From positions 17,320 to 81,319 of the forward strand of contig NIVC01003711.1 of assembly GCA_002269645.1 (NCBI GenBank): 64,000 bases of DNA, given 5' to 3'. Below are positions 9,978 to 49,924 of this stretch, one piece after another. This DNA is from Macrostomum lignano (Eukaryota). Both the position numbers and the translations under genes were made by a program. The notes under the pieces are model-generated. The model had not been told where the DNA came from. It saw nothing but the letters and a program-made list of their open reading frames with translations, and made no database searches. The first letter of the stretch is position 1. Every line of letters starts with the position of its first letter.

Positions 9978-20980
<11,003 letters not shown>

Positions 20981-24305: not shown

Positions 24306-27300
24306 TCAGGAGGCGCTGTCTGGCATGAGCAGATCGATCAGGCGCTTCACACAGTCTGGCCTGAGCCGGGCCAAGTCGAAATTTGCATAGTCTTTGTCTT
24401 TATTAGTCAGCGCCTCGGATTCGGCCAGCACGGAGGCGAGAAGCTGCAGTCGGTCTGGATCGTCAAGCGAAGCGGCCAGCAGGCACAGCTGGAATCTCTG
24501 GTCGTATTCCTCCCGGCTCAGGCCAGACTGCGCCGACCACTGGTACTTGGGGTGGCGGGCCAGGGCAGAGGACTCGGCAGCCATGGCAGCAGCCGAGATC
24601 GGTATGGAGGCAGCCGCCAGGGGCGAGGAATCCGCCGACGAGCTTGGCGGTTCGGCGCCAGCTGCCGGCCGGAAGCCGGTGCTCTCGACGCTAACCTGCG
24701 ACATCAGCTCCGGATCGTCTTTGGGCCCAGCGGCCGACTGCAGATAGGGGCTGAGCATTGGCGGCTCAGCCTCCAGCATTGGCGGGGGCTGAGCTGCCTG
24801 AGGCTGGGTGGAAACTGCAGCCTGTGGCGCTTGCAGAGCCGCCACCTTCGCTTCAATTCCTACAGTGTTGTCAACCGGCTGAAGCTGGTCGGAAACTGTG
24901 ACAGCAACGGGGGCGGCGGTTGCCGGGGCGGCCAAGGCGGAAGCTTCAGTGACGTCGTCTCCGTCCGGCTCGTCGTGGCGTCGGCGCTTTTTCTCTTTAC
25001 CGCCCTCGTGTCGATGCCGGCGCCGTTCGTGCCGCTTCCGCTCGGCGTCGCTGTCGGAGTCGCTGCGGCTTCGCGGCGCGCGATGATGATGGTGGTGGTG
25101 GTGCCGGTGGTGCTTCTCTTTCTTTCGTTTCTCCTTTTTTCGCTTTCGTCGATCGTCCTCGCTTTCGGTTGTTAAGCCGGGGGCGCCGCTGCCGCTTGGC
25201 TGCCAGCTGGCGGCGGATTCCGAGTAATTCGCTGGCGGCTGCTGCGCAACCGACGTTGGCGAAGACTTCATTGAATCGACGGCAACGTGCGGTGCAACAA
25301 CGGCCACCATAGCTGGTGGAGCGGCTGTTGGCGGAGCGGACCAGCCCTGCTGCTGCTGCTGTGGAGGGGGGTTCAGTGTGTAGGAGGCATCGGCCGGTGG
25401 CAGAGCAGAGACGGACGCCTCGGCTTTGACGGCAACTGGCGGCGGCGGCGGTACCGCGCCGGGCGAAGATTTAATCGGACTTTTGGAGATTTTCAGCACC
25501 AGCTTCTCGTTTTTCATTTCGTCGGTGCGCAGCTCGGCAACTCGGGGCGGCGCTGGTGGCGGCGGCGGCGGCGCCAACTGCTGCTGCGACAAGTCGAACT
25601 CGGAGACGGCCGGTGATGCCGCCACTGCTGGTTCGGTTTTGACGGCTGCCGGCTGCTGCTTGGGCCGAGCCGAGTAGCCACCGGTGCCGCTGGATTCTCG
25701 AAGCTTCGCTTTGTTTGGCGAGGCCAGCCGACTGCCAACGATGCTCCTGCCGCTGCCCGCCGCCGCCAACTGCGACTGCTGCTGTGGAGACTGCGGCAGC
25801 GAGCCGGAGTGGACAGCCAATTGGTTGGCCAACTGCTGCTCGTCAGTTGAAGAAGCCGGCGACGCGAAGGTTTGTTCATCGGCTGGCAGCAGCGCCGCAG
25901 CCGCAGCCTTGGACTTGCTCTTGGACCGCACCAGGCCGCTGTTGCCCGACCCTCCAAGCTTGCTGGTCTTGGCTGGCTTCACCTCGGCCGGGCCTAGCGG
26001 CGAATCCTCGGCCGGATCCACCACAATCTGGTCAGTAATCAATTAGAGGGGCATTGATAGTGAGCCCAGGTAGCACAGGTAAAATAGGAAAGAAGTGACT
26101 CTGGACGACTCTAAAACTACAAGATGCCCCGGTTCAATTGGACAAAAAGTTGTCAGTTGCCTTAGAGCCACTTGAAGCGTTTTATTAGCTGTGACTCTGA
26201 CAGTGACAGGACGATATAACGACTCTGGGGCCGTAAAGTCGTAAGACAACGATTCTACAACTCACGTGACGCGATTGTGACGCAACAGTCGCTAAAGTCA
26301 CTAGTGAGTTGTTTGCAATCACTCTGTAGCGACTCTTGTCACAGTATAGTTTTAAATGGGGAGCGCAGTTGTAAATAGTGAGCACATTAGAGCACTTCAG
26401 GCATACACAATGAGCAGGTCAGGTTACTTACCCCACCAGCCCGGATAAGCTTCTCCCTGAACTCCGGGGGTCGCGGATTCGCGATGGAAAACGATTTGAT
26501 AGACTTGCAGTTAATATCTTTGTCAAGCATGAGAAACACTTCGTATTCAAAGCCGGCCATTGAATTGTTGAAGTGCAGCTCGATTTTCATTGGAAACGTG
26601 CCAAATGCTTTCTCCTCAATTTCGAATGGAGGCTGGCTAACAACCCGCATGGGGTCGGGAAAGGTTGGGTGCAGCTGGAACACCACTCGTTCAACAAAGG
26701 ATTCTAACTCTCCATGGCGGCCGCAGACCCAAACTTTCCAGACGTGTGTGGCATTTTGTACACTGGAATTTGGCAGCACCGGCTGAGTTGGTGCAGATGA
26801 GAGTCGCTTAGCCCAGTGGCCAATCTCAATCTCAATCTTTATCTGTGGGTGCCATTTAGTTAGCCATTCTTGATTGCATACGCTTTTAAAATAAATCATA
26901 AGTAATCAATCAATTTTAAGTATTAATTTTAAGAATCTATTTATAGTGGTATTTATATAAAAGCATTAGCAAGTTAGTAAATGTTAACTATTGTTCTAAA
27001 ATAATCTACAAAATGATACTAATAATATACTGCATTGATAGTGCTATACCTTTTCCCCATTTGCTTGGTTTTCTAAGAAACTTTTAATGATTTGAGTCAT
27101 AAATAATTGATTTAAATGGGTTGTCATGCATTTTGGTATCTCAATTTGCTTTTTAATATCCTAGTTTGTATTTGCCTATGTCCAACAATAAACTTTATCT
27201 AAAAATAGGGTAAGTTGTAAGTTTTTTGACAGATTGAATCAGTGATTTATTTTCTAATTCATTCTTTGAATCTATTAGGATAAATTTTAAAATATATAGA

Positions 27301-28736
27301 TCTATGAACATTGGGTGTCTATCAAAAAAGTGCCAAGGGTCATTCTCTAGGATATAAGAGCAATATCTAGGCCATAGACTAGATCATGCTGAGTGCATGC
27401 CCAAACAAAAATTGAATAGTTAAAAATGTACACCAAAAAATGGACCTAGATATTGCTCTCTAGACTCTAGACTCTAGTCTCTAGACCAACCTCGCACATT
27501 GTGGTTCCTTCAAAAAGAAAGCCAGTATCAAATAGTAAGAGTTCCGAGTAAATGTTATAAGATTGTTTTCCGAGTTATTCATTTGCAGAAGAGAAGTGAA
27601 GTGGCAGAGAACACATACAGTATATACTACTGAGAAGTGGAAGTAGTAAGAGACTATGAAGTAGATCCTAAATTGATACATGAAAGAATAACCAGAGGCT
27701 GTGACCCTCTGATCTCGGTAATGCCCAGGATTGGAAGTACATGCAATACATATACCAGTAAGCCAATACTGCTCAGGCCAGAATAACAGTAAACACTACT
27801 AGAAAAATAGTAAACGCTACCGGAATAACAGGAGAACAATACAAGGCGATTTCTTAGTTTCCCGCGTTAAATTATTTTTTTGCCTTTTTCAGCTGATCAT
27901 GGCCGGACGACCTCAGGCACGCCGTTTCATCGTTGACCTACACCTTCTGAGGCCCACCATTGAGCTCTGCGACCTCGACGTGAACCATCGGGAGCTGACT
28001 GTCCTCACTGGTGAGACGGGAGTGGAGTGGCTCGCTACATATGGCCTACTGCGAAATTCAATGGAGTGCCCTCATTGCGCACTACTACCCCGCTGTCTGA
28101 CATCCCTGACATCCCATCTATGGCCCCTGGACTTTTATATATGGACTTGGACTTCTTATTGCTTAATTGCTTATTGCTTGGACTTACAAAATAATTTAAC
28201 GCGGGAAACTAAGAAATCGCCCAATACAATTGTAAGGGCTAAATAGTATTCTAAGAACAATATACTCAGAAAAATTCTCAAATAGATACTCAGACAACTA
28301 CTTAGATATATACTCAGACTAATTCCAAGAAACATTTCTCAGACTTATTCTAAGATTAATAAACTCATAATTTATTAATAAAATAGTCTTGGTGGCACTG
28401 GCAGGCAGCAGCTACCAACATTAAGACATTTAACATAGAAAGAAGTATAACCCCTAGTACAACTTGGTGGCATTGTGGAATCATTTATAAAGACAGAAGT
28501 TAAGCCCTTTGACAACTTTAGTGACAGCTGTGGAATCATTTGTAGAGACAGAAGAATCAGCCCTTCGACAACTTTGGTGGCAGCTTTAGGGTATTCAATA
28601 ATAGGAATTAGAAAAGTAGCCCTACAACACTAGGCTTATTCAATTTATAATTTTAATAGAGCTCATTGTACTAAGACACAAAAAGAAACAATTTTAAAAG
28701 CCGCCAACTCACCTTCTCCTTCATTTTGCTAGTCAT
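24306..28736 (-). CDS. MLLT3: AF9/ENL-family YEATS-domain protein (MLLT3/MLLT1/ear-like, ~718 aa); exons 28736-28713 (predicted), 26842-26432, 26027-24306
   Basis: YEATS domain IKIEIEIGHWAK...THVWKVWVCG...FVERVVFQLHPTFPDPMRVVSQPPFEIEEKAFGTFPMKIELHF...FREKLIRAGG aligns by eye with AF9. The C-terminal NFDLARLRPDCVKRLIDLL resembles the AF9 AHD (FDLCSLDKTTVRKLQSYL). All junctions are phase 0 with GT/AG. The 24-nt first exon ATG ACT AGC AAA ATG AAG GAG AAG|GTGAG is inferred. Confidence 0.88.
27550..28629 (+). mobile_element. Old solo-LTR/remnant related to the adjacent gypsy LTR (left boundary unresolved), interrupted by the Merlin element, in AF9 intron 1
   Basis: 28440-28629 carries the same CCC-NNNN-ACA-ACT(T)-TGGTGGCA units and AGACAG(G/A)A spacer motifs as U5 of the full element, ending CCCTACAACA at 28629. 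No matching TSD was found. Confidence 0.6.
27845..28221 (+). mobile_element. Non-autonomous Merlin (IS1016-like) DNA transposon deletion derivative, 377 bp
   Basis: Perfect 34-bp TIRs starting GGCGATTTCTTAG (27845-27878 / 28188-28221) and an 8-bp TSD CAATACAA (27837-27844 / 28222-28229). The internal ORF from 27899 contains EWLATYGLLRNSMECPHC, resembling the Merlin transposase N-terminal CxxC region. Confidence 0.85.
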
Positions 28737-28790: not shown

Positions 28791-29528
28791 CCTATACGAA
28801 TGTGGCCTTTATAAATATAGCCTTCCTGTTAGTTAGTAGTAGAAAGAATCAAAATAATCCTGGTTCAAAATCAACTGATTAGTCATATATGATATACTTA
28901 ACTTACTGCAGTTGCGCTATGCGCGGCTCTGGCGACTCTGCAGGCCTCTGCTACTAAAAATTACGACTTCTTTGAAAAGAACTTTTTAAATGGGAGCGTT
29001 GCGTGTTTTGTTTTTTTGACATGAAGAAAAATATGGCAATCCAGTTAGGAATTCTATAATTATTAATGTTTATATTCACTTAGGCCCAGCCTAGTCTTTT
29101 TTTAATACATATAAAATACGTGTACTACTAACTTTAGATTTACTCTACTAACTGCTTCATCACAAAAATTTAAATTACACTGAAACGCTTTTTATTTGTG
29201 TACTTTATTTTTTATCGGATTCTTTACTTTTTGTCTTGTTTTATATACTATTGAGCTGACCTATACAGGTACTGTAGTAAAAAGATGCATCCGGCGTGTC
29301 CAGTAAGGTCGCTGGGCCAGTGAGGTCGGTGGGCCTGCCGCTTTTTAGCAGAGGCCCTGAAAATATTGCAAGGGGGCAAGCGAATTTTTGCCAAAATACA
29401 GTCTCACCCAGACCCACTCACTCTCACTTCTAACCTTCCGAGATACGCGCCTCATCTTACAGGTTCTGCCGACTTCTGTAGAGTAGAGCACTTCCTTTCC
29501 GAGCATATTTCATTATTTCCTATAATAT

Positions 29529-30344
29529 TGAGGCAGGCCCGATGTGTTTAATATTCACGTAACCATGATTTTAAATTTCCGCCAAACTACGCTTAACAAC
29601 GCATTTTTGTTAGAACGAAATCTTTGTTTTAATGGGTTTGTTTTATTCGGGAAAATTATTTTGTTAAACCGCTATAAAGAAATTTGTTTATTCACGACCC
29701 GCGCACCCCACCTCCCCCTTTTTGAGACTATAAATACAAGCGATTGCGGGCAATTTCCCCTTTGCCCGCCGTTTCCTCGATTCGGTCAAGAAAAGCAAAA
29801 CGTGTTGTCTTAGTCACTGGAAAGCAAGACAGGAGAGAAAGCTGTAAGAGGCCAGAAAAGCCGTAAGAGGCCAAGAAAGCCGTGAGAAGCCAGAAAAGCC
29901 GTAAGAGGCCAAGAAAAACTGTAAGAAGCCAGAAATAGACGGTTGACGAGTCGGGCAACTCCTTCCCAGGGAGCCCGCAACTAAATATAGGGAATTAATA
30001 GTAGTAATAATAATAGTAGTGAGATTCATAACTACATGTAGACCAGTGTTTGCCGCTCGACACTGCTACCAGGGCGACTTGCATAGATTCAAGGAGTCCT
30101 TAGATTAGAATTCTAGACTTGATATTTTCTAAGAAGCAGCAATTGACTAAGCAATTTTATGGAGTAATAACTATTCTAAATTACAACAACTTGATTCTGT
30201 AGTGTGATTATAAACTAAGAAGTGTATAGCCCTGGTATAACTTGGTAACAGCGGTGGGATATTAACAGACAGGAATACCCCCTAGAACAACTTGGTGGCA
30301 GCGGTGGGATATTATTAGAGAGGACAGGAGTTTCCCCTAGAACA
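29529..30344 (+). repeat. 5' LTR (TATA box TATAAATA 29729-29736; ~19-bp internal tandem 29839-29935; internal PBS copies)
   Basis: Direct repeat of 38335-39150 at offset 8806. Confidence 0.97.
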
Positions 30345-30347
30345 ACT

Positions 30348-30359
30348 TGGTGGCAGCGG
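30348..30359 (+). promoter_or_regulatory. Primer-binding site complementary to tRNA-Leu 3' end
   Basis: TGGTGGCAGCGG 3 nt after the LTR end. The reverse complement of the conserved metazoan tRNA-Leu(AAG/TAG) 3' end is TGGTGGCAGCGGTGGGATTCGAACC. Confidence 0.85.
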
Positions 30360-30393
30360 AAAGGGATTGGAATCCGACTAAGTCGACCGCTAA

Positions 30394-30493
30394 AGCAAAT
30401 AACGTGAGAGTACAGCAAATAACGTGAGAGTACAGCAAATAACGTGAGAGTACAGCAAATAACGTGAGAGTACAGCAAATAACGTGAGAGTAC
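30394..30493. repeat. Five perfect 20-bp tandem copies (AGCAAATAACGTGAGAGTAC) in the gag leader
   Basis: Copies start at 30394, 30414, 30434, 30454 and 30474; the gag ATG is at 30495. Confidence 0.95.
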
Positions 30494-30494
30494 A

Positions 30495-31397
30495 ATGGCA
30501 GCACTTAATGACGCTATAGGTTTATTAGCAGAGGAGCTTAGGAACAGGCTAGAACTAGGGCCTATGAGGCATGTAAAGATCCAAAAGTACACTCCCAGCC
30601 AGGATGTACGAATTTGGTTGACTGCATTCGATCAAAGGTGTGATCAGGAAGGAATAGATCAGGAGCACAGGAAAACTGAACTTCTAGCTAACCTAGATCT
30701 GTCAACTGCATTCGCTGCAGTACAGCGATTAAATTTACCCGAGGATTTGACGTATGAGGAATTTAAGGAGAGATTGGTGGAAAGATTTGGCCGGATTGGT
30801 AGCTCATCTGAGTGCAGAGAAGAGTTCAGAGGTAGGATGCAGGGTAGAAACGAGGCAACCGACGTGTTCGCCGATGCTTTGATCGAACTAGCAGCTAGGG
30901 CGTTCCCAAATATGAACGCAGAACAGCGTGAAGAGGAAGTAATCGAGCAATTTATCAAGGGAGTAAGAATTTCCTCCGATACCCGGGAGAAACTTATTTT
31001 TGCTCAGCCCACTAGCCTGCAGGAGGCCAGACGCATGCTTAGGAGAATAGAAGCAGCCTGGCATATGTCGCATAAGAACGGTGTCAGAGTCGTGAGAGAC
31101 GAAGATGATGAGAAGAGCAAGCTAGAAAAGCTAATTAAGCTGCAGAAAGCTGAGCTCGAAGAGCAGAAGAAGTTAATTCAGGAACTGCAAACTGAAAAGC
31201 AGCAGCAGCCGCCAGTTACTCAGACTAGGCCGCAATACTATCAGCCAAGAGTTCAGGCGTTCCAGCCACAGCTTCGCCCGCTGATGCAGCAGCAGATAAG
31301 GAGGCAGATTCCGTGGAAGCCAACACAGAATGTAGTGCGACCTGGCTTTAACAACCAGAGTCGATTCCCTGCCCGCAACCCCAATCAGGGAAACTAG
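30495..31397 (+). CDS. gag: Retrotransposon Gag (capsid-like, no CCHC knuckle)
   Basis: 300 aa ORF after the PBS. Motifs (DVRIWLTAF...LTYEEFKERLVERFG...FRGRMQGRNE...FADALIELAARAFP...EQFIKG) are typical of Ty3/gypsy capsid. Confidence 0.9.
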   Translation: MAALNDAIGLLAEELRNRLELGPMRHVKIQKYTPSQDVRIWLTAFDQRCDQEGIDQEHRKTELLANLDLSTAFAAVQRLNLPEDLTYEEFKERLVERFGRIGSSSECREEFRGRMQGRNEATDVFADALIELAARAFPNMNAEQREEEVIEQFIKGVRISSDTREKLIFAQPTSLQEARRMLRRIEAAWHMSHKNGVRVVRDEDDEKSKLEKLIKLQKAELEEQKKLIQELQTEKQQQPPVTQTRPQYYQPRVQAFQPQLRPLMQQQIRRQIPWKPTQNVVRPGFNNQSRFPARNPNQGN

Positions 31398-31461
31398 GAT
31401 TCGAGGGTCGATATTCGAGGCCACGTCCCTCTAGGAAACCCCAAAGCGAAGCTCAGGCCTC
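31388..31461 (+). promoter_or_regulatory. -1 programmed ribosomal frameshift signal (G GGA AAC plus predicted H-type pseudoknot)
   Basis: In-phase heptamer 31388-31394 immediately before the gag TAG. The -1 frame is open into pol. Stems GAGGGTCG/CGTCCCTC and GAGGCC/GGCCTC. Confidence 0.8.
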
Positions 31462-34400
31462 TCATTTCTCCCGCAAACCCGTTTTCAACCCACTCCCTGG
31501 AGGATGGCGACAAGTCCCATTTTCCAGGAATTCAATGCGTAATGCACCAATGCGTAATGCACCAACGCGTAATGCACCCATGTATAGAGCACCAATGCGT
31601 AATGCACCTGTAAACAGCGCGTCTCCCATCGCGCTATCTCCTAATATGTTTGAGTTATTGGCGTCAGAGCCCAGTGAGTCAGATGCAAAAGCATCAGCAT
31701 CCGAGTTGACAAAGTCCCCAGTGACTAAGCCAGCAAATGCAAAGCAGAAGGCGAGAAAATCTCGCAAAGCGAAATATCGAGAAGCTAAGAAAGCAGCTGA
31801 GAAAGCAAAAGTTGATTTGATAAGCGAGAAAAGTAGCGAAGCAATTGTCTTTGGAGACATTGAAGGTCAAGAAATTGACTTCTTGCTTGACACCGGAGCC
31901 GGAAACTGCTTCCTAAGCAAGTCAGTATGGTCCAAGGTGATCAAGACAGAGCAAATCCGAGAAACCAATAAGAGAGTTACCACATTTGATGGTTCCTCAG
32001 TGCAGCTAGAAGGAGAAGCTAGTGTGTCTGTAACCTTTGGAGATATCCAAATTGATACCAGCTTTTTGCTGTGCAGCTATGAATGTGATAACATTCTTGG
32101 CATGGACTTCTTCCTTTCCCACTGTAAGAGCATTGATTTAGACAATGGCATGCTTGTACTAAAAAGAGGCCTCTGTGTGCCTATGCAGTACACTCGCCAA
32201 GCAGTTAGAATTTGCCGAGTTTATACTCGAGAAAAGGCAGTAGTACCTGCTAATAGTGCATTGAGAGTTCCCATTAGGCTAGCGAAAGACCATGAGCCCA
32301 ATCATGGCACTCCTATGACAGTAGAAGTGATCGGAGAAGGCGTGAGAGCCAAGGAATTGACAGTAGAGATGGTTCCGACATTGGTCACCATGAGAGACGG
32401 CAGTGCCATCGTGGAGATCGTGAATCGACACTCTGTCGACGTGAGACTGCCGAAGTCGACATTGATTGGTCTGGCCAAGCCCATGAGAGCCAAGGACCTC
32501 GTCTACTGGTCAGCATCGCCTTCCGCCGCCGAATCAGCTTCGCCGACAATTGCCGAAGATGCCGCACAACCCGCCGGACGTGTCAATCAAGCTCAGGCAA
32601 CTGAAGATGCTTGGGTGAGCGAAATTAGTATTGGTGCCGATTTATCTGAAAGTCAGCGAAAAGCAGTAATTGATCTCGTGAGAGAGAATAGAGAAGCATT
32701 TTCCCAGCATGATTTAGACATGGGATTGACTCATCTAGTCACTCATGAAATTTCCCTGAAGGACGAGACCCCTGTTAGAATCCCTACCCGCCGCATCCCC
32801 CCTCATCTCCAAAAGCAAGTCGACGCCCAGCTAGACGACATGCTAGCTAAGAATCTCATCCGCCCCTGCTATTCTACCTATTCTACCCCATTAGTCATTG
32901 TGCCAAAGAAGGATGGCACCATCCGAATAGTGAGTGATTTCCGAGTGCTCAACTCTAGAGTTAACTATTTTCCCTATCCCCTCCCCAATATTCAAGAAAC
33001 TTTTTCTAATCTTACTGGCAGTAGGTACTTTAGTAGTTTAGATCTTAACTCAGGTTATTGGCAAGTGCCTATAAAGGAAGAGCATAAGTTCATGACCGCG
33101 TTCTCTACTTTGACGCGAGGACAGTTTGAGTACCAGGTTATGGCGCAAGGGTTATCCAACGCGCCCGGTACATTTCAAAGACTGATGAACTTAGTGCTAG
33201 CCGGAATCCAGCATAAGTTTGCAATGTCGTATATTGACGATATAGTTACTTACTCGAAGCAATTTGAGGAGCATTTATCCCATCTAAGAGAGGTGTTTCA
33301 GAGATTGATCACCGCAGGTTTAAAGTTGAGAGCGAAAAAGTGCAACTTATTTCACTCTGAACTCAAGTATCTAGGCCATGTGATAGGTAGAGATGGCATT
33401 CGCACAGACGAAGCCAAGATTGAAGCCATTAGAACCTGGCCAAAGCCAAAGGAAGTAAAGGAATTGAGAAGCTTTTTAGGATTGTGCAATTACTACAGCA
33501 GATTTGTCAAAAATTATGCTGAAGTAGCGCATCCTCTTTTCCAACTGACTCGTAAGGGAGTTCAAAACTTCCAAGCAAAATGGACAGCAAAGCATGATGA
33601 AGCGTTTGAGCTATTGAAAACCCGTATGATGAGTACTGACGTGTTAGCATACCCTGAGTTCATAGACAATGAGAAGGTGAAGATGGTTCTCGATGTAGAC
33701 GCCAGTGATGGACGCATAGGTGCCTGTTTAGGACAAATCCAATCAGACGGTGTCGAGAGACCAATCGCCTACTTTAGTCGCGCTATGAAGGAGTCAGAAA
33801 AACGCTATCCCATAACTCGCAAGGAGTTGCTAGCTCTAGTAGATGCCATGAGGCATTTCCGCTTCTATCTAATAGGAAAGAAATTTCTAGCTAGGACCGA
33901 CCATAAGGCTATACTTTGGTTATTAAGGCAGACAGAAGCCCAGGGCATTTTAGGCAGATGGATTGAGCGCCTCAATGAATTTCAATTCGAAATCGAGCAT
34001 AGGAGTGGCGCGAAACATTCAAATGCCGATAGCTTGTCCCGAAGGCCAGCCGAGGCTGCCCAGCCAGATTGTAAAGCCAATGAGAAGGCGGAAGCCGAGA
34101 AGAAGAATCAAGAGATGAGCGAAATCCCCAGCAAAGGCGTAAGAGCCGAAGTGAACCAAAAGATAAGCGCAGATAAAGAGAAGTATATCCCCAGCGAACG
34201 CGTGTGTGCACAGCAGAACCAGAATGGGAAGGCTAAGGACAGCATAAGCAATCTGACCCAGCCCCCCACTGAGCAGAGAGAGGGAGAGACCAACCCCCCC
34301 CCCCCCGAGTCACAGAGGAGCAAAATAGTCTCTGGTGAGAAGAGTGTAAGGATTGACAGTGTGAAAACACAGAGCTCCTGCGTTATGCAATCGAGCAGAG

Positions 34401-34591
34401 TCACCCCACAATCTGAGCACAGTGAGGAGTATGGCACGCTGAAGGTTGGAGCATTATTAGTTGACTTCCTACCTAACCCCCTGCGGAGAGAGCAGATTAT
34501 TAATGCCCAGCGCGAAGACCCCAATATTAGTACTTTGCTGAGTTGCAAGCTTGAAGAAAAAGAACCCCCCCGCCGAGCAAAAGAGCATTAG
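31394..34591 (+). CDS. pol: Pol: aspartic protease, reverse transcriptase, RNase H (entered by -1 frameshift; ORF track starts at 31535)
   Basis: FLLDTGAG (PR); SLDLNSGYWQV, QGLSNAPGTFQR and SYIDDI (RT); VLDVDAS, KELLAL and RTDHKAI (RNase H). Confidence 0.95.
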   Translation, partial: LGFEGRYSRPRPSRKPQSEAQASHFSRKPVFNPLPGGWRQVPFSRNSMRNAPMRNAPTRNAPMYRAPMRNAPVNSASPIALSPNMFELLASEPSESDAKASASELTKSPVTKPANAKQKARKSRKAKYREAKKAAEKAKVDLISEKSSEAIVFGDIEGQEIDFLLDTGAGNCFLSKSVWSKVIKTEQIRETNKRVTTFDGSSVQLEGEASVSVTFGDIQIDTSFLLCSYECDNILGMDFFLSHCKSIDLDNGMLVLKRGLCVPMQYTRQAVRICRVYTREKAVVPANSALRVPIRLAKDHEPNHGTPMTVEVIGEGVRAKELTVEMVPTLVTMRDGSAIVEIVNRHSVDVRLPKSTLIGLAKPMRAKDLVYWSASPSAAESASPTIAEDAAQPAGRVNQAQATEDAWVSEISIGADLSESQRKAVIDLVRENREAFSQHDLDMGLTHLVTHEISLKDETPVRIPTRRIPPHLQKQVDAQLDDMLAKNLIRPCYSTYSTPLVIVPKKDGTIRIVSDFRVLNSRVNYFPYPLPNIQETFSNLTGSRYFSSLDLNSGYWQVPIKEEHKFMTAFSTLTRGQFEYQVMAQGLSNAPGTFQRLMNLVLAGIQHKFAMSYIDDIVTYSKQFEEHLSHLREVFQRLITAGLKLRAKKCNLFHSELKYLGHVIGRDGIRTDEAKIEAIRTWPKPKEVKELRSFLGLCNYYSRFVKNYAEVAHPLFQLTRKGVQNFQAKWTAKHDEAFELLKTRMMSTDVLAYPEFIDNEKVKMVLDVDASDGRIGACLGQIQSDGVERPIAYFSRAMKESEKRYPITRKELLALVDAMRHFRFYLIGKKFLARTDHKAILWLLRQTEAQGILGRWIERLNEFQFEIEHRSGAKHSNADSLSRRPAEAAQPDCKANEKAEAEKKNQEMSEIPSKGVRAEVNQKISADKEKYIPSERVCAQQNQNGKAKDSISNLTQPPTEQREGETNPPPPESQRSKIVSGEKSVRIDSVKTQSSCVMQSSRVTPQSEHSEEYGTLKVGALLVDFLPNPLRREQIINAQREDPNISTLLSCKLEEKEPPRRAKEH

Positions 34592-36197
34592 CTCAGAATT
34601 TAAGCAGTTGGGCAAATCCTACGAGAAAATGAAAATCGAAAGCGATATGCTTGTTATTGAAGAAGAAGGAGTAAGCAAAATTGTGTTGCCAGTGTCGCTG
34701 GACAAATTAGTGCTGGCTGATCTACACGATAGCCCACTAGCAGGACACTTGGGTCGTGACAAGACAGTGCAAAGAGTTAGGGAGAGATTTTGGAGACCCG
34801 GCTTAGTGACAGCCATTGAGAAGTACATATCTGAGTGTATTCCGTGTTTGGAAAGCAAAAGAGGATGCCCTGTTCAGGCTCCAGTGCAGTCATTCCCAGT
34901 CAACGAGGCATTTCATCGCCTACATATCGATATCATAGGCCCCATTTCGAAAGAAAGCAAGAGAGGCCATCGTTATGTACTGACTGTAATTGATAGTACT
35001 ACCCGCTACCCATTCGCGTTCCCGATCCGTAATCAGAAGTCTGATACCGTGATCAAGATCTTACAGGAGCGAATTTTCAGTGAATATGGTCAATGCCATT
35101 GGATACATACTGACAATGGGAAAACCTTCACAAGCAGACAGTTTAAAGCGTTTTGCGAAGCATACAATGTCAAGCACACCTGTACCACCCCGTACCATGC
35201 CCAAAGTAATGGCTTGGTAGAGAGGTTTAACAAGCAAGTGAAATCCATCATTACCTGTTTAATTAAGAAGGACCATAGCAATTGGGATTTAATGATCCCA
35301 GCAGCGCTTGTTGCAGTGCGCACTAGTGTGAATCAAACCACAGGCTATTCACCCCATTTCCTGTTATTCGGAAGGGAGCCAGTTTTGCCACTAGACAGTC
35401 AAATTCGCCAGCCAAATCAGTACTCAGGCTATCCAGCCTATGTCGCAGATCATGCCGAAAGGCTAGAAATTGCCAGAAAAATCGTGAGAGATAAGCTCGA
35501 GAAAGTTGCTGATAATAGAAAGAATATTGCTGAAACAGCCAAGCAGCCTAAGGAAGTACCAGTAGGGAGTTTAGCGTTATTAAATAACCCGCAGTTAGAC
35601 AATGAGGAGTCTAACAAATTTCACAGAAAGAAGAGAGCCGCCTATAGAGTGATCGAACAGATCTCAGATGTAGTGTTTAGAGTGCAGAAAGAAGAGGATG
35701 GTGAGCTTGTAGGGAATAAATTATTAGTGCATAGGGACAATTTAACACTAGTTCCTAATTCGACCGCAGAATTACCAATTAAGGGAAGCCAGCAGGAGAG
35801 GCACCGGAAGAAAAATCAGTCAAGGAGGGAACCTAAAGCTAAGGGAAGCCACCCGCCGAGGAAGCATAAGGAGATAGTGATTAGTGAAGAGTCTGAGTAT
35901 GACACTGAATCTGAGGATGAGCGAGTGCAATGGCAATGCCAAATGAGAGAGTCCGAAACGGAACCAGCAACTGAGAGCGAAGATGAGAGCCAAGAGTCAG
36001 AGAGTGCGGTAGAAGAAGGAGGAATAATGAGCAATGCAGAAGACGCCAGAGAGAACAATGAGATTGAGCATGAGCACGAGGAAGCTAATTCAGAGAGGAG
36101 ATACAATACACGCAGGCAGGTCAGGCCCCCCAAGTGCTATTGTTGCTTGAAGCGGCTGGCCACTGTGCTGTCTTTGTTGAACAATCTCAGTTTCTGA
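34551..36197 (+). CDS. pol: Integrase portion of pol, offset +1 from RT-RH at a C7 run
   Basis: HHCC (LHDSPLAGHLG...CIPC) and DDE (LHIDIIGP, HTDNGKTF, SNGLVERFN), with an acidic tail ending RRYNTRRQVRPPKCY. Confidence 0.92.
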   Translation: MKKKNPPAEQKSISSEFKQLGKSYEKMKIESDMLVIEEEGVSKIVLPVSLDKLVLADLHDSPLAGHLGRDKTVQRVRERFWRPGLVTAIEKYISECIPCLESKRGCPVQAPVQSFPVNEAFHRLHIDIIGPISKESKRGHRYVLTVIDSTTRYPFAFPIRNQKSDTVIKILQERIFSEYGQCHWIHTDNGKTFTSRQFKAFCEAYNVKHTCTTPYHAQSNGLVERFNKQVKSIITCLIKKDHSNWDLMIPAALVAVRTSVNQTTGYSPHFLLFGREPVLPLDSQIRQPNQYSGYPAYVADHAERLEIARKIVRDKLEKVADNRKNIAETAKQPKEVPVGSLALLNNPQLDNEESNKFHRKKRAAYRVIEQISDVVFRVQKEEDGELVGNKLLVHRDNLTLVPNSTAELPIKGSQQERHRKKNQSRREPKAKGSHPPRKHKEIVISEESEYDTESEDERVQWQCQMRESETEPATESEDESQESESAVEEGGIMSNAEDARENNEIEHEHEEANSERRYNTRRQVRPPKCYCCLKRLATVLSLLNNLSF

Positions 36198-36235
36198 GTG
36201 GAGGAGAAGGAAGGAAGGAGAAGGAGGAGTGAGAG

Positions 36236-36468
36236 CCAATGAGAGGAGGCGTAGAAGTGAAGGGATTTCGAGGCCGTGGATAGGAGGAGAGAGGCGAAGA
36301 GACCGACAGCCAATAAGGAAGAATCATCAGCCAATGAGAGAAGACCTGCCATTTAAACAAATAATTGTTTGTTTGAATAAGCTTGAAACATGATGCCCCC
36401 CAAAGTGGAATGTTTGCAAACCTATATAAGCGAGATCCCTGACGCAATCAGTTCCTCATCCTCAACAG
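36236..36468 (+). promoter_or_regulatory. Internal promoter signals (3x CCAAT, TATA, Inr) overlapping a branch point/acceptor upstream of ORF3
   Basis: AGCCAAT(G/A)AG with CCAAT at 36236, 36310 and 36331; TATATAA 36423-36429; TCAGTT 36448-36453; CTGAC 36439-36443; pyrimidine tract plus CAG ending 36468. Confidence 0.6.
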
Positions 36469-36523
36469 AGCAATAAGGCAGCAATTAAGTAGCAATAAAG
36501 AAGCAGTCAAGAGCAAATCCGTT

Positions 36524-37966
36524 ATGAATAAAGAAAACGAAGAGTTAAATATTTTAGCAGACGGTAGTGAATTTGACGATCTATTAAAAGAGCTTGAAGG
36601 GCCTTGGCCCATGCAGCAAGATGAGCAAACTGAGCAACCAGAGCCAGAGCGTTCAGCGCAGCAAAACGAGCAAGAACAGCTAGCTGAGGCTCCGTCGCAG
36701 CCGCCTGCTACGCAGCAGCCTGCTCCGACGCTGGCACCGCCGTCAGAGCCATTACGGGAGCGTCAGTCAGCTGACCTGCCCGGGCCCTCGCAGCCACCGG
36801 AGCCCTCCACCAAGCCAAAGCGACCTGCTGCAGAAACGGATCAGGGTACACAAGCGAAGAGGCCGGCCCCGTCAAGGCTGCCAGTGTCCCAGGATCCGGC
36901 AGCAAGACAGGAGCTCGTTAGAGTGAAGTCGGTGCAGTCCGTGGTGGTAAAACCGACGGTTATGCAGAGGCACCCGGCTGGCGCGCGGCCCACACTGATG
37001 TTAGCTGCCCCGCCTCAGCAGCAGCGGCCGGCTCAGCGGTCGCAGCCTCGACGTGTGGCGTCGCGAGCAGAAGTCCGACAGCAGCTGCCAGTGCACCGCA
37101 GGCTGGCTCCGCGGCCGCCGCCGCAGCAGCGCCGGCAGTCGCCGCCGCAGCGCCGCCACCAGTCTCCGCCACGGCACCGCCACCAGTCGCCGCCGCAGCG
37201 CCGCCACCAGTCTCCGCCGCAGCACCATCAGCAGCCACCGCCGTCTCAGCCTCATCAGCAGCCACCGCCGTCTCAGCACCATCACCAGTCTCCGCCGCAG
37301 CACCATCAGCAGCCACCGCCGTCTCAGCCTCATCAGCAGCCACCGCCGTCTCAGCACCATCAGCAGCCACCGCCGTCTCAGCCTCATCAGCAGCCACCGC
37401 CGTCTCAGCACCATCAGCAGCCACCGCCGTCTCAGCACCATCAGCAGCCACCGCCGTCTCAGCATCATCAGCAGCCACCGCCGTCTCAGCATCATCAGCA
37501 GCCGCCACCGCAGACTGCAGTGCCACCACAGGCGTCAACCTGCCGTGCAGCTGCAAGTTATTTGTTCGCCCCCGGCAACCAAGACATCCAAAGGCTTGCT
37601 GCGATGGGCGCCGACTTCAGCGCCATCATGGACGGTTTGTCGCCAGAACAGCAGGCAAGAATGAAGCGACTGATTGCTGCCCTGAAGGAGTATCTAATGC
37701 GAATCGGCCACTTGCGGTTGGACCGGCCGCTGCCACAGCGGGCCCAGGTCCGGCCAGCCTGCATTGTGCTTCGCCAAGAATTCACGCCTGAGCAAGCTGT
37801 CGCGGCTTGGCGCCGCGCCGTGAATTACGTACTTCATGACCTGAATGCGGCTGGCCAGCCGTACTTTCGCACGCTGCTTATCATAGAGATTAAGTGGCTC
37901 GCCGAGCAAGTCGGATGGCCTCTACGCGACCTTTTGCCGGACGAATTTAATCTGAATGATAATTAG
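36524..37966 (+). CDS. Accessory ORF3 of the retrotransposon, unknown function, not env-like (480 aa)
   Basis: Intact ATG-to-TAG ORF between INT and PPT. It has an acidic N-terminus, a QPPPSQHHQ repeat core and a ~140-aa predicted-helical C-terminus, with no visible signal peptide or TM segment. Confidence 0.8.
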   Translation: MNKENEELNILADGSEFDDLLKELEGPWPMQQDEQTEQPEPERSAQQNEQEQLAEAPSQPPATQQPAPTLAPPSEPLRERQSADLPGPSQPPEPSTKPKRPAAETDQGTQAKRPAPSRLPVSQDPAARQELVRVKSVQSVVVKPTVMQRHPAGARPTLMLAAPPQQQRPAQRSQPRRVASRAEVRQQLPVHRRLAPRPPPQQRRQSPPQRRHQSPPRHRHQSPPQRRHQSPPQHHQQPPPSQPHQQPPPSQHHHQSPPQHHQQPPPSQPHQQPPPSQHHQQPPPSQPHQQPPPSQHHQQPPPSQHHQQPPPSQHHQQPPPSQHHQQPPPQTAVPPQASTCRAAASYLFAPGNQDIQRLAAMGADFSAIMDGLSPEQQARMKRLIAALKEYLMRIGHLRLDRPLPQRAQVRPACIVLRQEFTPEQAVAAWRRAVNYVLHDLNAAGQPYFRTLLIIEIKWLAEQVGWPLRDLLPDEFNLNDN

Positions 37967-38334
37967 GTGACTATAATTGAACTGTCATGTACTGTTATTT
38001 TTTCGCATTGCATGCATACCTATTTAGCCTTCACTAATTTGCATGGATACTTATTTAGCCAAAATTCTTGTGTGCTCAACTTTGTGCAACTTTATATTTA
38101 GCCAAACATCTTTTTGTACGCTCAACTTCGTGCCATTTTAATAATAGCCAACCTTGCTCAATTCTTCCACTAACTATATTACTGATATTACCATGTTGTG
38201 TGCTGTTTTAATGTTTTAGTGTCAGCCAATTTTATCTAGTGCCTACGTTTTGTGATTAAAAGCCCCTTTTGCACTTTAACTACACATTTATTCACTCACT
38301 AGTTTATTCATAAATATGTAGAAGGGAAGCCAGT

Positions 38335-39150
38335 TGAGGCAGGCCCGATGTGTTTAATATTCACGTAACCATGATTTTAAATTTCAGCCAAACTACGCTT
38401 AACAACGCATTTTTGTTAGAACGAACTCTTTGTTTTAATGGGTTTGTTTTATTCGGGAAAATTATTTTGTTAAACCGCTATAAAGAAATTTGTTTATTCA
38501 CGACCCGCGCACCCCACCTCCCCCTTTTTGAGACTATAAATACAAGCGATTGCGGGCAATTTCCCCTTTGCCCGCCGTTTCCTCGATTCGGTCAAGAAAA
38601 GCAAAACGTGTTGTCTTAGTCACTGGAAAGCAAGACAGGAGAGAAAGCTGTAAGAGGCCAGAAAAGCCGTAAGAGGCCAAGAAAGCCGTGAGAAGCCAGA
38701 AAAGCCGTAAGAGGCCAAGAAAAACTGTAAGAAGCCAGAAATAGACGGTTGACGAGTCGGGCAACTCCTTCCCAGGGAGCCCGCAACTAAATATAGGGAA
38801 TTAATAGTAGTAATAATAATAGTAGTGAGATTCATAACTACATGTAGACCAGTGTTTGCCGCTCGACACTGCTACCAGGGCGACTTGCATAGATTCAAGG
38901 AGTCCTTAGATTAGAATTCTAGACTTGATATTTTCTAAGAAGCAGCAATTGACTAAGCAATTTTATGGAGTAATAACTATTCTAAATTACAACAACTTGA
39001 TTCTGTAGTGTGATTATAAACTAGGAAGTGTATAGCCCTGGTATAACTTGGTAACAGCGGTGGGATATTAACAGACAGGAATACCCCCTAGAACAACTTG
39101 GTGGCAGCGGTGGGATATTATTAGAAAGGACAGGAGTTTCCCCTAGAACA
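38335..39150 (+). repeat. 3' LTR
   Basis: Direct repeat of 29529-30344, preceded by the purine tract AGAAGGGAAG. Confidence 0.97.
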
Positions 39151-40226
39151 ATATTATCTTGTCAATTTGGGTTACTAGGCCTGCCTATCATGTCATGAGT
39201 TACTTACTTGACTTAGCTGCAGGGGGCTACGTGCGTCCGGAAACAGCGAGGAGGCGTTGCCGCCCATATCGCTAACCCCTGGCGACCATGTCATGAGTTA
39301 GACATGACATGCATGACATGAAAATTTGTATTTAACTTCTTTAAAAATGTTAAATAGCAGAAATATGATATAGTATTCAATATAAAAAATATTTTGCACT
39401 TCTTCAAATTTGTTTCTTGAATTTAAAAAGCTTGAATTTGAATATTAAAAAACAAATGTAAACTAGGTGTAGCTACCCAAATTTGAATTGAGTTTGGTTT
39501 AATAGATAAAAGTTCACTTTGCACAAAAATTATTTTGTATTATACTTGGAAGCCCTATTTTATATTAGACCTAATTCTAAAGGTTATTGTTGTAAATCAA
39601 CATAGTTTATATAGAGATTCTAATAGGATCATGTAAAGTACTAAAAAACTTGATAAGTTGATAGTTAGTATATAATTCTATGTGTAACAATGCCTTTAGA
39701 CCTATTATACTTTGAGTGAAAAAAATTAAAAGTTTTTATTGTATCTCTAATAGTGCTAATATGATAGATATATTAGGGCCCAATAGTGATGGTTATCACT
39801 GTCTATTTTAAAAGGCCTAAAATTGAAATAAAACACATTTTTGCTAAAAGGATCTATGTCTATTTGACTTTTAGCAATAGACAATGAAATTTCCCACAAT
39901 GGGTTTGTTTTTATACTAAAATTAGACTATTATGATTGAGCTTAAACAATATTTATATATAGATATTAGATAGGATCAATCAACTTCTTAGGCATTGTAC
40001 CCAAGATTCTAGGACTTGACTTTAGGATAATCAAGAAGTAATCGGGTATCTGGTTTAATTTTGAATTAATTATAGATGTTGGATAGCAACAAAGTTTTCA
40101 GGATTGAGATCCTTGTCGTAATCCTAAAATATCTTTTAATAACTTTTTCAACCTACTTACAGACAGTAGTAATAAGCAGTACTTGATTTACTAAATGTCA
40201 CCCCATCCTATTGCACATTCAATCAG

Positions 40227-47116: not shown

Positions 47117-49924
47117 TCAGAGGAAGAACAGCCGGTCGCAAATCTGCGGGCTCGGCTCCTCCATCAGATTCTGGCCGACCAGGTACGCCAGCCTGTGGGC
47201 GTAAAGGCAGGGCGCTGGAACACGTATAGTGCCGGGCCAGTTAAAGTACAGGTGGGTCAGCTTGTACGTCAGCTGCTGCACCTGGTCCGGCTTGATGTTG
47301 GCATCATTCATGTCTTCGATGACGTTGTAGTGAGTCGGCGTGACCGTGCCCTGGTTCACGTACTGCGACACCAGGAAGAAGTCCACGAAGTTCGGCATCG
47401 TGATCACGTCGTCCAGCACGGTGCCGGGGGCCGGGTTCCTCAGCTGGCTGCCCAGCTTGCGGAACATGCGAGAGCTGACCAGCTTCTTCACCACAATGGC
47501 CTTGAAGCCGAGGCTGCTCATGCGCTCGCCGTAGATTTTCGACAGCGACTGCTTCAGCTGGAGCAGCTCCGAGTTCTTCACCTGCAAATATGATAACATA
47601 AATTATAATAATGCACTTGGCGCCAATTTCAGACAACTACTTGAGCAAAAGCTCACCTCCTCCAGCATAGAGTCGCCCACACCGTCGCGGTACAGGATGA
47701 TCCGGGTAGGCAGGTCGCCGTTCTTCTCTCTGAATTTCTGCAGGGCCAAGTTGAAGCCGACCTCCAGCCTGTTGTGCAGCTCGGCTTTGCCTCCCTTTAC
47801 GATGGGCGAGTACGAGTAGTACTGGGTGAAGGTCTCGTTCAGCGAGAACACAATGCCTTGCACCGAGACGCTCTGCCGCTTGTCGTGATAAGTGTCCATC
47901 CCGACGATCATTGTGCGCTTCATCGGGATGCTCACAGCCCAGGCAACGCCGCCCAGCTTGCAGGAGATCTGCAGGGCCACCTTCGTGGCAACCGACATCA
48001 CCTTGGCCGGGTTGCGGATAGTCTTGGTCAGGACGCACTGGCTCGGCACCGGCTTGTTTACATAGCACAAACGCTTGATGGAGTCGTAGCGCTGCTTCTT
48101 GTTGCTGGGCAGCAGGCAGAACACCAGGTCCAGGCCTTGGTCGATGTTTTCCTCAATCGTCTTCACCCACAGCTGGTCTCGGTCCTGAGCCACTGCCAGC
48201 ACGTAGGGCTCGCCGAACGACATGCCGAGTGACTGCGAAGCCCGACTCAGCTTCTGGCAGAAGTCGGCGGCCGCCTGCTCGTCTCGCTGGGAGTACACAA
48301 AAATCCAGTTCTTGCAGTTCACCGGCTGAAACATGCCGTTGCCCTTGAGAGCATTGTCCCAGTCAGCGCGCTCAGAGTCCACCCTGATGGGTTTAGTCAT
48401 CTGGACAGTCTCCGGAGCCAGCTGGGGGGCGGTGGCCTCCACAGCGTTGGGCGCTACCGCCAGGCCGAACTCTCCCAGCACCCGCTGGCACTCCCGGTTT
48501 TGGGCCATTGTGCTTGCAAATTTTAGCAGCTTGCCGCACCGAGTTGACGGGTCAATCCGAGTGAAGGTGGCCAGGTCCTTCATCAGGTTTCGGTCGGCCC
48601 GCATCTCATCAGTCAGACCGGTCATAAAGCAAACCTCTGGAGGCAGAAGAACGTTCTCAGCCTGCTCTCGGCGGCCTCCCTTAGTCGGCGGCAGGTCTCG
48701 CTTGCGCGGCTTCGACATCAGAAGCGGCTGCCCACTGTCCGACAAATTGACATTGTACGTCTGGGCGAAGTACTGGGCCAGCGAAATCTCCTCGCTCTGG
48801 CGAGTGCTCTTATTGTACCTGGGGAAGGTCTCAGTTACTCGCTTATCCCATTCGATTGCGTCAATACGGTACGTCTTGTTGTTGTGCCGCGTGAGCACTA
48901 TCTGCCCCACCAAGGCGTCGGTGGCTGCGGCCTGGAAATTGCCGGGATTGCGATTGTACATGTCGTACATCACATCCAGAACCGTGCTCATGTGGATGAT
49001 CTTGTGCGACACGTCAACATGCAGCATCAGAGGTCCGTCAGACGGCTTGATGGCCATCTCGAAACCGGGCCACACCTGGTAAAGGCGATCAAAGTGGAAT
49101 TTTTTGTCAAATTCACAAAGTTAACTGCCACAGCAGAGCAAACCGCTTACCTCCATGCGATGCTGTGGAAGCTTCGTCGCTTGGTTGGGGTAATAAAAGT
49201 TTCTGCCGACCATTTGCATGTTGAGGTGGCTCTGGGTTTTTCCAAGCACTACGTTCATCAAGTGCAACCACTGAGGCGTGTTCTTTTCGATGACGCCAAC
49301 CTGTCTAATTGCAACTTCGCCGCTCCACGACTTGATGCTGGCAGCAAACTTTACTCCCTCGGCAGGCGCCAGGGGCTGCTTGGTGTACAGGCAGCCGCCA
49401 TCGTAAACAAACGGCTTTGGCACCTGCTGGGCATCGTTCAGCAGCTTCTCGCGCAGCGGCTTCGCGCCCAGCATCGGGCGAAAGTCGGCGGCCAGCTGGT
49501 AGGCGCACCATTTGTCCTCGGTGTTGATCCGAACGAAATTCGTCATCACCTGCACCGGGGCTCCGCTGCTGCCCTTCTTGCCCGCAGCTCCCTCGGGCCG
49601 AACATTCGCCATCTGGAAGCGCAGCAGCTTTCGTTGTAGGCCGCCTCGCTCGCCGCTGGCTTCGCCGCCAACTCGCAGGCGGGCCATGCGCTCAGACAGC
49701 TGGCCCGGATCTCCGGCCTGCTGTGCAGCACCGTTACATTCAGCAGCGTGAACCCCAGATGGAGCAGCAACACCAGCTTGAACACTCAGGCCTGGTGGCG
49801 GAGCCGGACAAGCAGCTGCGATGGGGGCAGGGGCTTGGACTGAGCTGGCGCCAGACGTAACCTCCTCAGGGCGAGGGCCTGCGCGCCCTCGAGCCCGACC
49901 ACGGCCTTTAATCTGTTGCGACAT
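47117..49924 (-). CDS. piwi: PIWI-clade Argonaute (~885 aa); exons 49924-49151, 49075-47657, 47581-47117
   Basis: N-terminal GRGRARGRA; PAZ region (VLTRHNNKTYRIDAIEW...YFAQTYNV...QPLL); MID (KQRYDSIKRLC...PSQCV...KVALQISCKLGG); PIWI (GMDTYHD, YRDGVGD, GTVTPTHY, WPGTIRVPAPCLYAHRLA, DRLFFL). Two ~75-bp phase-0 GT-AG introns. Confidence 0.97.

Follow-up and report, generated by a model that had tools for sequence, protein, structure and literature searches.

ORF3 in the env position of a young Ty3/gypsy element

The window analysed here, a stretch of 64,000 nt of Macrostomum lignano DNA, contains a Ty3/gypsy LTR retrotransposon in which LTRs, a primer-binding site (PBS), a polypurine tract (PPT), a target-site duplication (TSD) and the pol order PR-RT-RH-IN are all present, and which carries a further reading frame, ORF3, between the integrase stop and the PPT and 3′ LTR (Table 1). 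The element is young, as its two LTRs differ at 4 positions (99.5% identity), and its 4-bp TSD, together with the 40 families in Table S1 of PMC12801592, makes it a candidate member of the Gmr1/Osvaldo cluster. We infer that pol is reached from gag by a −1 frameshift at the slippery heptamer, and the pol frame of the window copy is broken between RNase H and integrase. The PBS is presumably of the tRNA-Leu type. A first-pass annotation had described an intact 480-aa ORF in the env position, a frameshifted gag-pol with a PBS array, and a regulator-like layout with a promoter-like region upstream; the ORF was located on the forward strand, both the slippery heptamer and the PBS array were present, and the layout was supported by three CCAAT boxes, a TATA box and an Inr-like motif.

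Table 1. Features of the element and of ORF3 (positions in the window), and loci of pol-less relatives
Feature	Position or locus	Strand	Remarks
5′ target-site duplication, ATAT	29525..29528	.	3′ copy at 39151-39154
5′ LTR, TG...CA, 816 nt	29529..30344	+	TATA box, 19-nt tandem repeats
Primer-binding site	30348..30365	+	
gag, 300 aa, without CCHC knuckle	30495..31397	+	weak Retrotrans_gag match, E 0.015, below Pfam cut-off
Slippery heptamer G-GGA-AAC at gag/pol overlap	31388..31394	+	
pol, PR-RT-RNase H part	31535..34591	+	frame interrupted after RNase H
pol, integrase part (H2C2, rve, p58_C)	34629..36197	+	
Predicted internal promoter	36236..36453	+	CCAAT x3, TATATAA at 36423, Inr-like TCAGTT at 36448
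ORF3, 480 aa, non-env accessory gene	36524..37966	+	
Acidic N-terminal segment, amphipathic D/E-D-L-L-x-E-L pattern	36524..36613	+	
Basic KRP clusters (predicted NLS-like) and recurring linker motifs (R-x-x-L-L helix, SVV)	36812..37003	+	
Q/P/H repeats, 24/27-nt	37117..37512	+	
Conserved C-terminal helical domain, 6 helices	37550..37963	+	
Polypurine tract	38318..38334	+	
3′ LTR, 816 nt	38335..39150	+	U3 moves with ORF3 between backbones
Pol-less loci	L061, L067, L068, L070, L072, L074, L076, L081, L108-L110, L115, L116, L120, L121		

In the predicted internal promoter the Inr-like motif lies 25 nt past the TATA box, which is itself 101 nt upstream of the ATG; by sequence, 12 of the 27 ORF3 representatives have a canonical TATA at 72-111 nt before the ATG, and the other 15 have none in that position. 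A conserved GAACAC..GATGCGGTCCAG element precedes ORF3 in one subclade and in a host-like copy of the domain described below, and no family-specific motif stood out as common to the LTR and the internal promoter. The motif TTTGTT[TA] is enriched in the U3 only (44 occurrences vs 10.2 expected, present in 24/26 U3s), and E2F-like sites were found in 10 of the 26 (14 vs 3.4 expected); with the factor assignments that we presume for these sites, this suggests that the U3s are promoters for proliferating cells. No heat-shock element was found in the 26 U3s.

At its 3′ end the 5′ LTR bears two additional LTR-end/PBS-like units. Arrays of such units form the LTR ends (window positions 30225-30365 and 39030-39150; L031-L122), with 1-6 units per LTR in the 31 LTRs counted and varying PBS sequences, and their spacers recur across families in differing order, which resembles a template-switch record. 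At 28300-28620, 900 nt upstream of the element, a related family has left part of an LTR end together with a PBS array, and a 377-nt MITE-like element with perfect 34-nt terminal inverted repeats occupies positions 27845-28221. Rfam gave 0 matches within 29400-39300. Four host-like ORFs in the window encode what we take, by eye, to be HDAC1 (1716-2549), a CPEB-type RRM protein (9951-11894), a YEATS protein (24306-26899) and a Piwi protein (47117-49924), the last of them 8 kb from the element.

The ORF3 protein and its C-terminal domain

The last 143 aa of ORF3 had at least 150 matches in the genome at 32-100% identity (150 of 150 scored candidates matched; 278 in a first look). From these, 60 larger regions were picked for long open frames and diversity, with 20 more around the 109 matches of another search, and the domain was present in 79 of the 80: 51 have an upstream pol, 15 only a divergent gag-like ORF, and 13 neither, three of the last representing one host-like locus that carries the domain alone. 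Comparison of 27 full-length ORF3s (279-480 aa) indicated a common layout of acidic N-terminus (net charge −7 to −11 in 27/27), P-x-R-x-x-T-R-P motif (weak in the window copy), K-R clusters, R-x-x-L-L helix and domain, in which a disordered linker is followed by a basic folded domain (pI 8.0-10.9); the basic K-R motif was scored in 21/27. The Q/P/H repeats, which in the window comprise 9 QPPPSQ and 5 QSPP units at 27/24-nt spacing, differ in copy number among close copies and in sequence in every family, and among the 27 versions they are not a conserved functional part. The C-terminal ~120-aa helical domain of ORF3 is under purifying selection.

Window ORF3 has neither a TM segment nor a signal peptide, because its highest 19-residue hydropathy is 0.68 and its first 30 aa carry a net charge of −7. 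No TM segment was found in any of the 27 representatives (maximum 19-aa hydropathy 0.27-1.11), the window copy has no N-glycosylation sequon, and its single RMKR, at aa 379, falls within the helical domain without being conserved. An env protein or class I-III fusogen was rejected for want of a signal peptide or TM anchor and of env-family similarity in Pfam or PDB sequences, and a FAST-like fusogen of the sORF2 kind was rejected on length and the missing TM segment.

The domain was modelled by AlphaFold2 as a six-helix bundle (pLDDT 91, pTM 0.85); a diverged ORF3 member gave a similar helix pattern and is elsewhere disordered except for an N-terminal helix and one short linker helix. Foldseek returned no match at E<=0.001 against PDB (two models) or BFVD (one model). 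The best VIA-align scores, Z 7.2 and 7.8, were to 4heh_B (rmsd 2.5-2.7, 78-88 aligned), and since the neighbours are generic helical bundles (B12-cap, MIF4G/MA3/W2, Gle1) within background, they indicate neither a known nor a new fold. A homodimer prediction, run without an alignment, scored 0.01, which speaks neither for nor against a dimer.

Sequence searches likewise gave no named relative. Pfam yielded nothing at cut-off for ORF3, 32 aligned domains or 8 sister-clade ORFs, and PDB sequences gave a best E of 0.08, with no similarity to DNA-binding families in either. ORF3 had no match among 5.8 billion proteins by phmmer/hmmsearch (near lengths only), ESM Atlas gave no usable match or scores under 0.9, and an exact look-up of 10 proteins found none. 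A domain profile against 1.84 billion proteins gave 8 matches, of which six were credible, five labelled Macrostomum lignano and one a Logan protein, and P0001 among the six matches the ORF in locus L072; P0007, a repeat protein, and P0008, TPR-like, were dropped as spurious.

These results can be set beside the first-pass annotation of the protein. Its view that signal peptide, TM segment and furin-like architecture are lacking agrees with the hydropathy, the charge and the unconserved RMKR; the acidic N-terminus that it noted recurs in all representatives, its Q/P repeats could be counted, and the C-terminus that it predicted to be helical has a confident fold without a structural match at the above threshold. 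The other copies that it proposed to look for are widespread, and the known env or fusogen that it named as counter-evidence was found in neither Pfam nor PDB sequences.

Below 74% RT identity, the next elements match at 59-62%, and all 8 sampled (L123-L130) have a 175-278-aa non-env ORF after integrase; sister-clade ORFs had 76 and 66 genome matches. Over 107 columns, those of L127-L129, which begin 3-4 nt past the integrase stop without a TATA, can be aligned to the ORF3 domain with a pairwise E of 0.0037 and a probability of 8.9%, which is suggestive of remote homology. The other five showed no detectable relation to the domain, and profile comparison gave E 0.75 with A4, a second sister-clade ORF, and E 0.063 with L124. 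L131 and L132 (RT 81%) are rearranged and uninformative.

Exchange, selection and derivatives of ORF3

Identity between elements was mostly 90-100% over gag-pol and fell to ~50% from the ORF3 start through the U3 in 4/4 pairs plotted. Identical RT proteins occur with very different ORF3 domains, three backbones carry 3 to 10 ORF3 types, domains were <60% identical in 36 of the 47 pairs whose gags are >=85% identical, and ORF3s of 98-100% aa identity occur with gags only 62-68% identical in DNA. At the level of genomic copies, these comparisons demonstrated that ORF3 and U3 are exchanged as a cassette between near-identical gag-pol backbones. The pattern argues against ORF3 being part of the particle or partnering Gag or integrase in integration targeting, for instance by supplying RNA binding to a knuckle-less Gag: the missing CCHC knuckle and the R/S/P-rich stretches of ORF3 would suit such a role, but identical RT and near-identical gag and integrase pair with domains <60% identical, and near-identical ORF3s pair with a full Gag or a truncated mini-Gag, so that we regard it as very unlikely.

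The domains were >=71% identical in all 8 pairs with U3 cores >=75% identical, three of which have an unrelated start of the 3′UTR; among 14 pairs with similar domains (>=70%), 6 have U3 cores <75% identical, among them two copies of the window family whose domains are identical. Physical linkage alone accounts for five of the 8, ORF3 and U3 being neighbours, and the other three may reflect easier recombination between close relatives. A matching of ORF3 to U3 is therefore suggested only, given this linkage and the six dissimilar U3s. Over 23 elements, which are not independent, U3 follows ORF3 (rho 0.46) better than gag (0.26), and the R/U5 leader with its tandem repeats follows gag (0.76) better than ORF3 (0.52).

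Selection on the domain was assessed from pairs of copies. Eleven pairs at 74-85% aa identity had pS 0.68-0.81 and pN 0.08-0.15, and pN/pS was 0.11-0.51 in all 22 pairs tested, well below the value near 1 that the first-pass annotation had named as counter-evidence; JC-corrected ratios over 47 mostly distant pairs, where both rates are saturated, had a median of 0.60 and a maximum of 1.05. Among the 8 closest copies ORF3 is intact in 4 and the full-length pol is unbroken in only 1, so ORF3 is not preferentially broken, and many of the frame breaks may be assembly errors. Base composition sets ORF3 apart (GC 0.63, GC3 0.63) from gag and pol (GC 0.45-0.48, GC3 0.47-0.50), the four host-like ORFs of the window having GC3 0.69-0.92. 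GC3 of ORF3 exceeds that of RT in 19/19 families with synonymous sites saturated, so that the excess is being kept up and cannot serve to date a capture. Of the idea that a GC-rich ORF3 records capture from the host, the GC above gag-pol stands; recent capture is unsupported, given the excess in all 19 families and a lone host-like copy that groups with one element subclade. That ORF3 is a passenger without a current role, a captured host exon or decayed env, could draw on this composition and on the four broken copies; purifying selection at saturated synonymous distance largely refutes it, and the confident fold of two diverged members, the lack of excess breaks over pol and the missing TM segment in all 27 representatives also speak against it, which leaves it highly improbable.

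The 15 pol-less loci carry near-identical LTR pairs, ORF3 and a 191-197-aa mini-Gag, which consists of the Gag N-part, a hydrophobic helix (hydropathy 1.5-1.95) and a C-x2-C-x11-H-x-C motif. The mini-Gag is broken or shortened in 4/15, and its substitution rates (pN 0.12-0.20, pS 0.57-0.77) indicate purifying selection. In three of these elements the 3′ 2.6-2.9 kb is 94-97.5% identical to that of a full-length partner. TR-GAGs are non-autonomous plant LTR elements that keep LTRs and a gag-derived ORF, as the pol-less relatives do, but the latter carry the truncated mini-Gag with its helix and motif, and ORF3. A 701-aa transposase-like ORF is inserted in one pol-less element (L110:4748-6850).

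The codon tree of the domain is ~8x longer than those of RT, gag and integrase from the same elements (85 vs 10-13). Such a rate suggests host conflict, and ORF3 might generally antagonise a host protein of defence or cell state (PIWI/piRNA, a chromatin repressor, a cell-cycle regulator), with no preference for its own LTR and via short motifs and a protein-binding helical bundle. The short linear motifs that recur in the disordered chain and the coexistence of up to 10 ORF3 types on one backbone fit this reading, which we nevertheless consider unlikely: a freely shared factor would be easily lost by pol-less elements, yet intact ORF3 is kept there. This argument is weak, because the loci were found through ORF3, so that retention is not quantifiable, and because the whole 3′ end was taken from full-length partners.

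The host-like locus (L103:8213-8569, L105 and L106; P0005) consists of the domain alone, 118-119 aa in three syntenic copies and 42% identical to the nearest element, preceded by a TATA and the internal-promoter motif of one subclade; gag, pol or an LTR pair were not found in the 8 kb upstream. In a midpoint-rooted tree it groups, on a long branch, with one element subclade, and it is therefore probably element-derived. Between its copies, pS is 0.011-0.044 and pN 0.004-0.008 (1-4 synonymous and 1-2 non-synonymous differences per pair), a thin indication of selection. Gene-model names are attached to it and to two other ORF3 relatives; as far as the available part of PMC5730564 describes it, the species annotation was built from RNA-seq, so that the names would be an indirect hint at transcription if they are linked to that annotation.

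ORF3 as a putative regulator of element expression

Extra non-env ORFs in LTR elements are of a known kind, and what is new here is that one system joins a predicted internal promoter to swappable ORF3-U3 cassettes, satellites with a mini-Gag and a host copy of the domain alone. We found no description of ORF3 in the literature searched, and supplements, bioRxiv files and the group's earlier classification paper may mention it; the text of PMC12801592 has no word starting with 'ORF', and four gene ids of ORF3 relatives are absent from the supplements examined (PMC12801592, PMC5730564 and PMC5816591).

Among the roles considered, that of a nuclear regulator of expression agrees best with how the protein is built, with the promoter-like region and with the coupling to U3. 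We tentatively favour ORF3 as a nuclear activator or anti-silencing factor of the element's own transcription, made from the internal promoter in the manner of foamy-virus Tas. The internal promoter between integrase and ORF3 would give a separate mRNA, and the basic motifs would bring the protein into the nucleus; the helical domain would dock on the element's promoter chromatin, directly or via a host factor, and the acidic N-terminal helix would recruit co-activators and raise LTR-driven gag-pol RNA, as Tas does. The differing ORF3-U3 cassettes would then be alternative expression modules sharing one enzyme backbone. Weighing against this reading are the missing similarity of the domain to DNA-binding families, the 15 representatives without a TATA in the expected position, the lack of a motif common to both promoters, the similar domains that occur with dissimilar U3 cores, and the leader that follows gag better than ORF3. 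According to the available part of PMC7390438, Tas has an internal promoter, called unique to foamy viruses among retroviruses, and an acidic activation domain, and activates the LTR. ORF3 resembles Tas/Bel1 in being an accessory gene that occupies the 3′ part of its LTR element, with a second internal promoter (predicted here) and an acidic segment apart from a folded domain. It differs in that the acidic segment is N-terminal in ORF3 and C-terminal in Tas, that its element is a Ty3/gypsy without env, and that its transactivation is putative; no match to Tas was found in Pfam or 1.84 billion proteins.

Alternatively, and rather less probably, ORF3 would be an RNA adaptor like HIV Rev or the CERV protein of C. 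elegans Cer1 that binds the full-length RNA and acts in its export, stability or translation. An N-terminus LKRLQDELSL in one subclade fits what we take to be the leucine-rich export-signal spacing, MDDSLDDFI in another resembles what we take to be the UAP56-binding motif, R, S-P and T-P abound in the linkers, and the folded domain is basic. Early regulatory genes in Rev-type systems keep a higher GC3, and that of ORF3 is above that of RT in all 19 families. CERV is a precedent for such a protein in a Ty3/gypsy element (PMC10309623, from the part available). On the other side, the free exchange of ORF3 over an unchanging gag-pol RNA means that a response element, if there is one, has to lie within the cassette, and no sequence link to CERV was found. 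A weaker point is that no splice joint, of the kind that would make export of unspliced RNA necessary, was seen in contigs of 4 runs (4 studies), which are of unrecorded kind, none on record as RNA, and cover 28-30/30 bins from gag to mid-ORF3.

Beyond Tas, the putative regulator has partial parallels, taken here from the available parts of the papers cited. CERV is likewise an accessory protein encoded by an LTR retrotransposon; it is lineage-restricted, evolves fast, and combines an NLS-like motif with novel folded domains set in a flexible chain. Its mRNA, however, is spliced and has exons in common with gag, and its folded domains number three (PMC10309623), whereas ORF3 is an ORF of its own downstream of pol and has a single folded domain. 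The anti-silencing protein VANC of VANDAL is a TE-encoded, fast-diverging factor associated with family-specific tandem repeats in non-coding parts, but it belongs to a plant DNA transposon and acts on DNA methylation (PMC5735166), and the repeat-bearing leader here follows gag better than ORF3; it had no match to ORF3 in Pfam or 1.84 billion proteins. Bdelloid rotifer ORF3s (PMC5408684) and plant additional ORFs (PMC7264820) are also family-specific, lie between pol and the 3′ LTR and undergo modular exchange, and the non-autonomous rotifer TelKA2n keeps ORF3 without most of pol (PMC5408684). The rotifer ORF3s are GDSL, DEDDy, TM or coiled-coil proteins, typically from spliced messages (PMC5408684), and the flatworm ORF3 has no Pfam match to any of these classes. 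The sORF2 of Drosophila MDG1-group elements (PMC11952523) is another extra ORF in an LTR retrotransposon, but both it and env are membrane proteins, unlike ORF3.

A broader scenario, speculative and on balance improbable, is that an animal Ty3/gypsy clade without env arrived independently at a two-promoter circuit of the foamy-virus kind, in which a new helical-domain transactivator and its matched U3 make up cassettes that are interchangeable between shared enzyme backbones. Pol-less satellites with a membrane-anchored mini-Gag would exploit these cassettes, and the host would keep the domain-only copy, in which the acidic activation segment is missing, to serve as a dominant-negative repressor.

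Few accessory proteins of animal LTR retrotransposons have been characterised, CERV and sORF2 being rare worked-out cases, and the present system offers a new protein domain of which dozens of variants occur naturally, each of them tied to a promoter of its own. LTR-reporter transgenes already work in this flatworm, according to the part of PMC12801592 available. The system lends itself to asking how a retrotransposon gains expression in the face of silencing in stem or germ cells, what makes regulatory cassettes diversify when pol becomes homogenised, and whether such regulators are converted by hosts into inhibitors.
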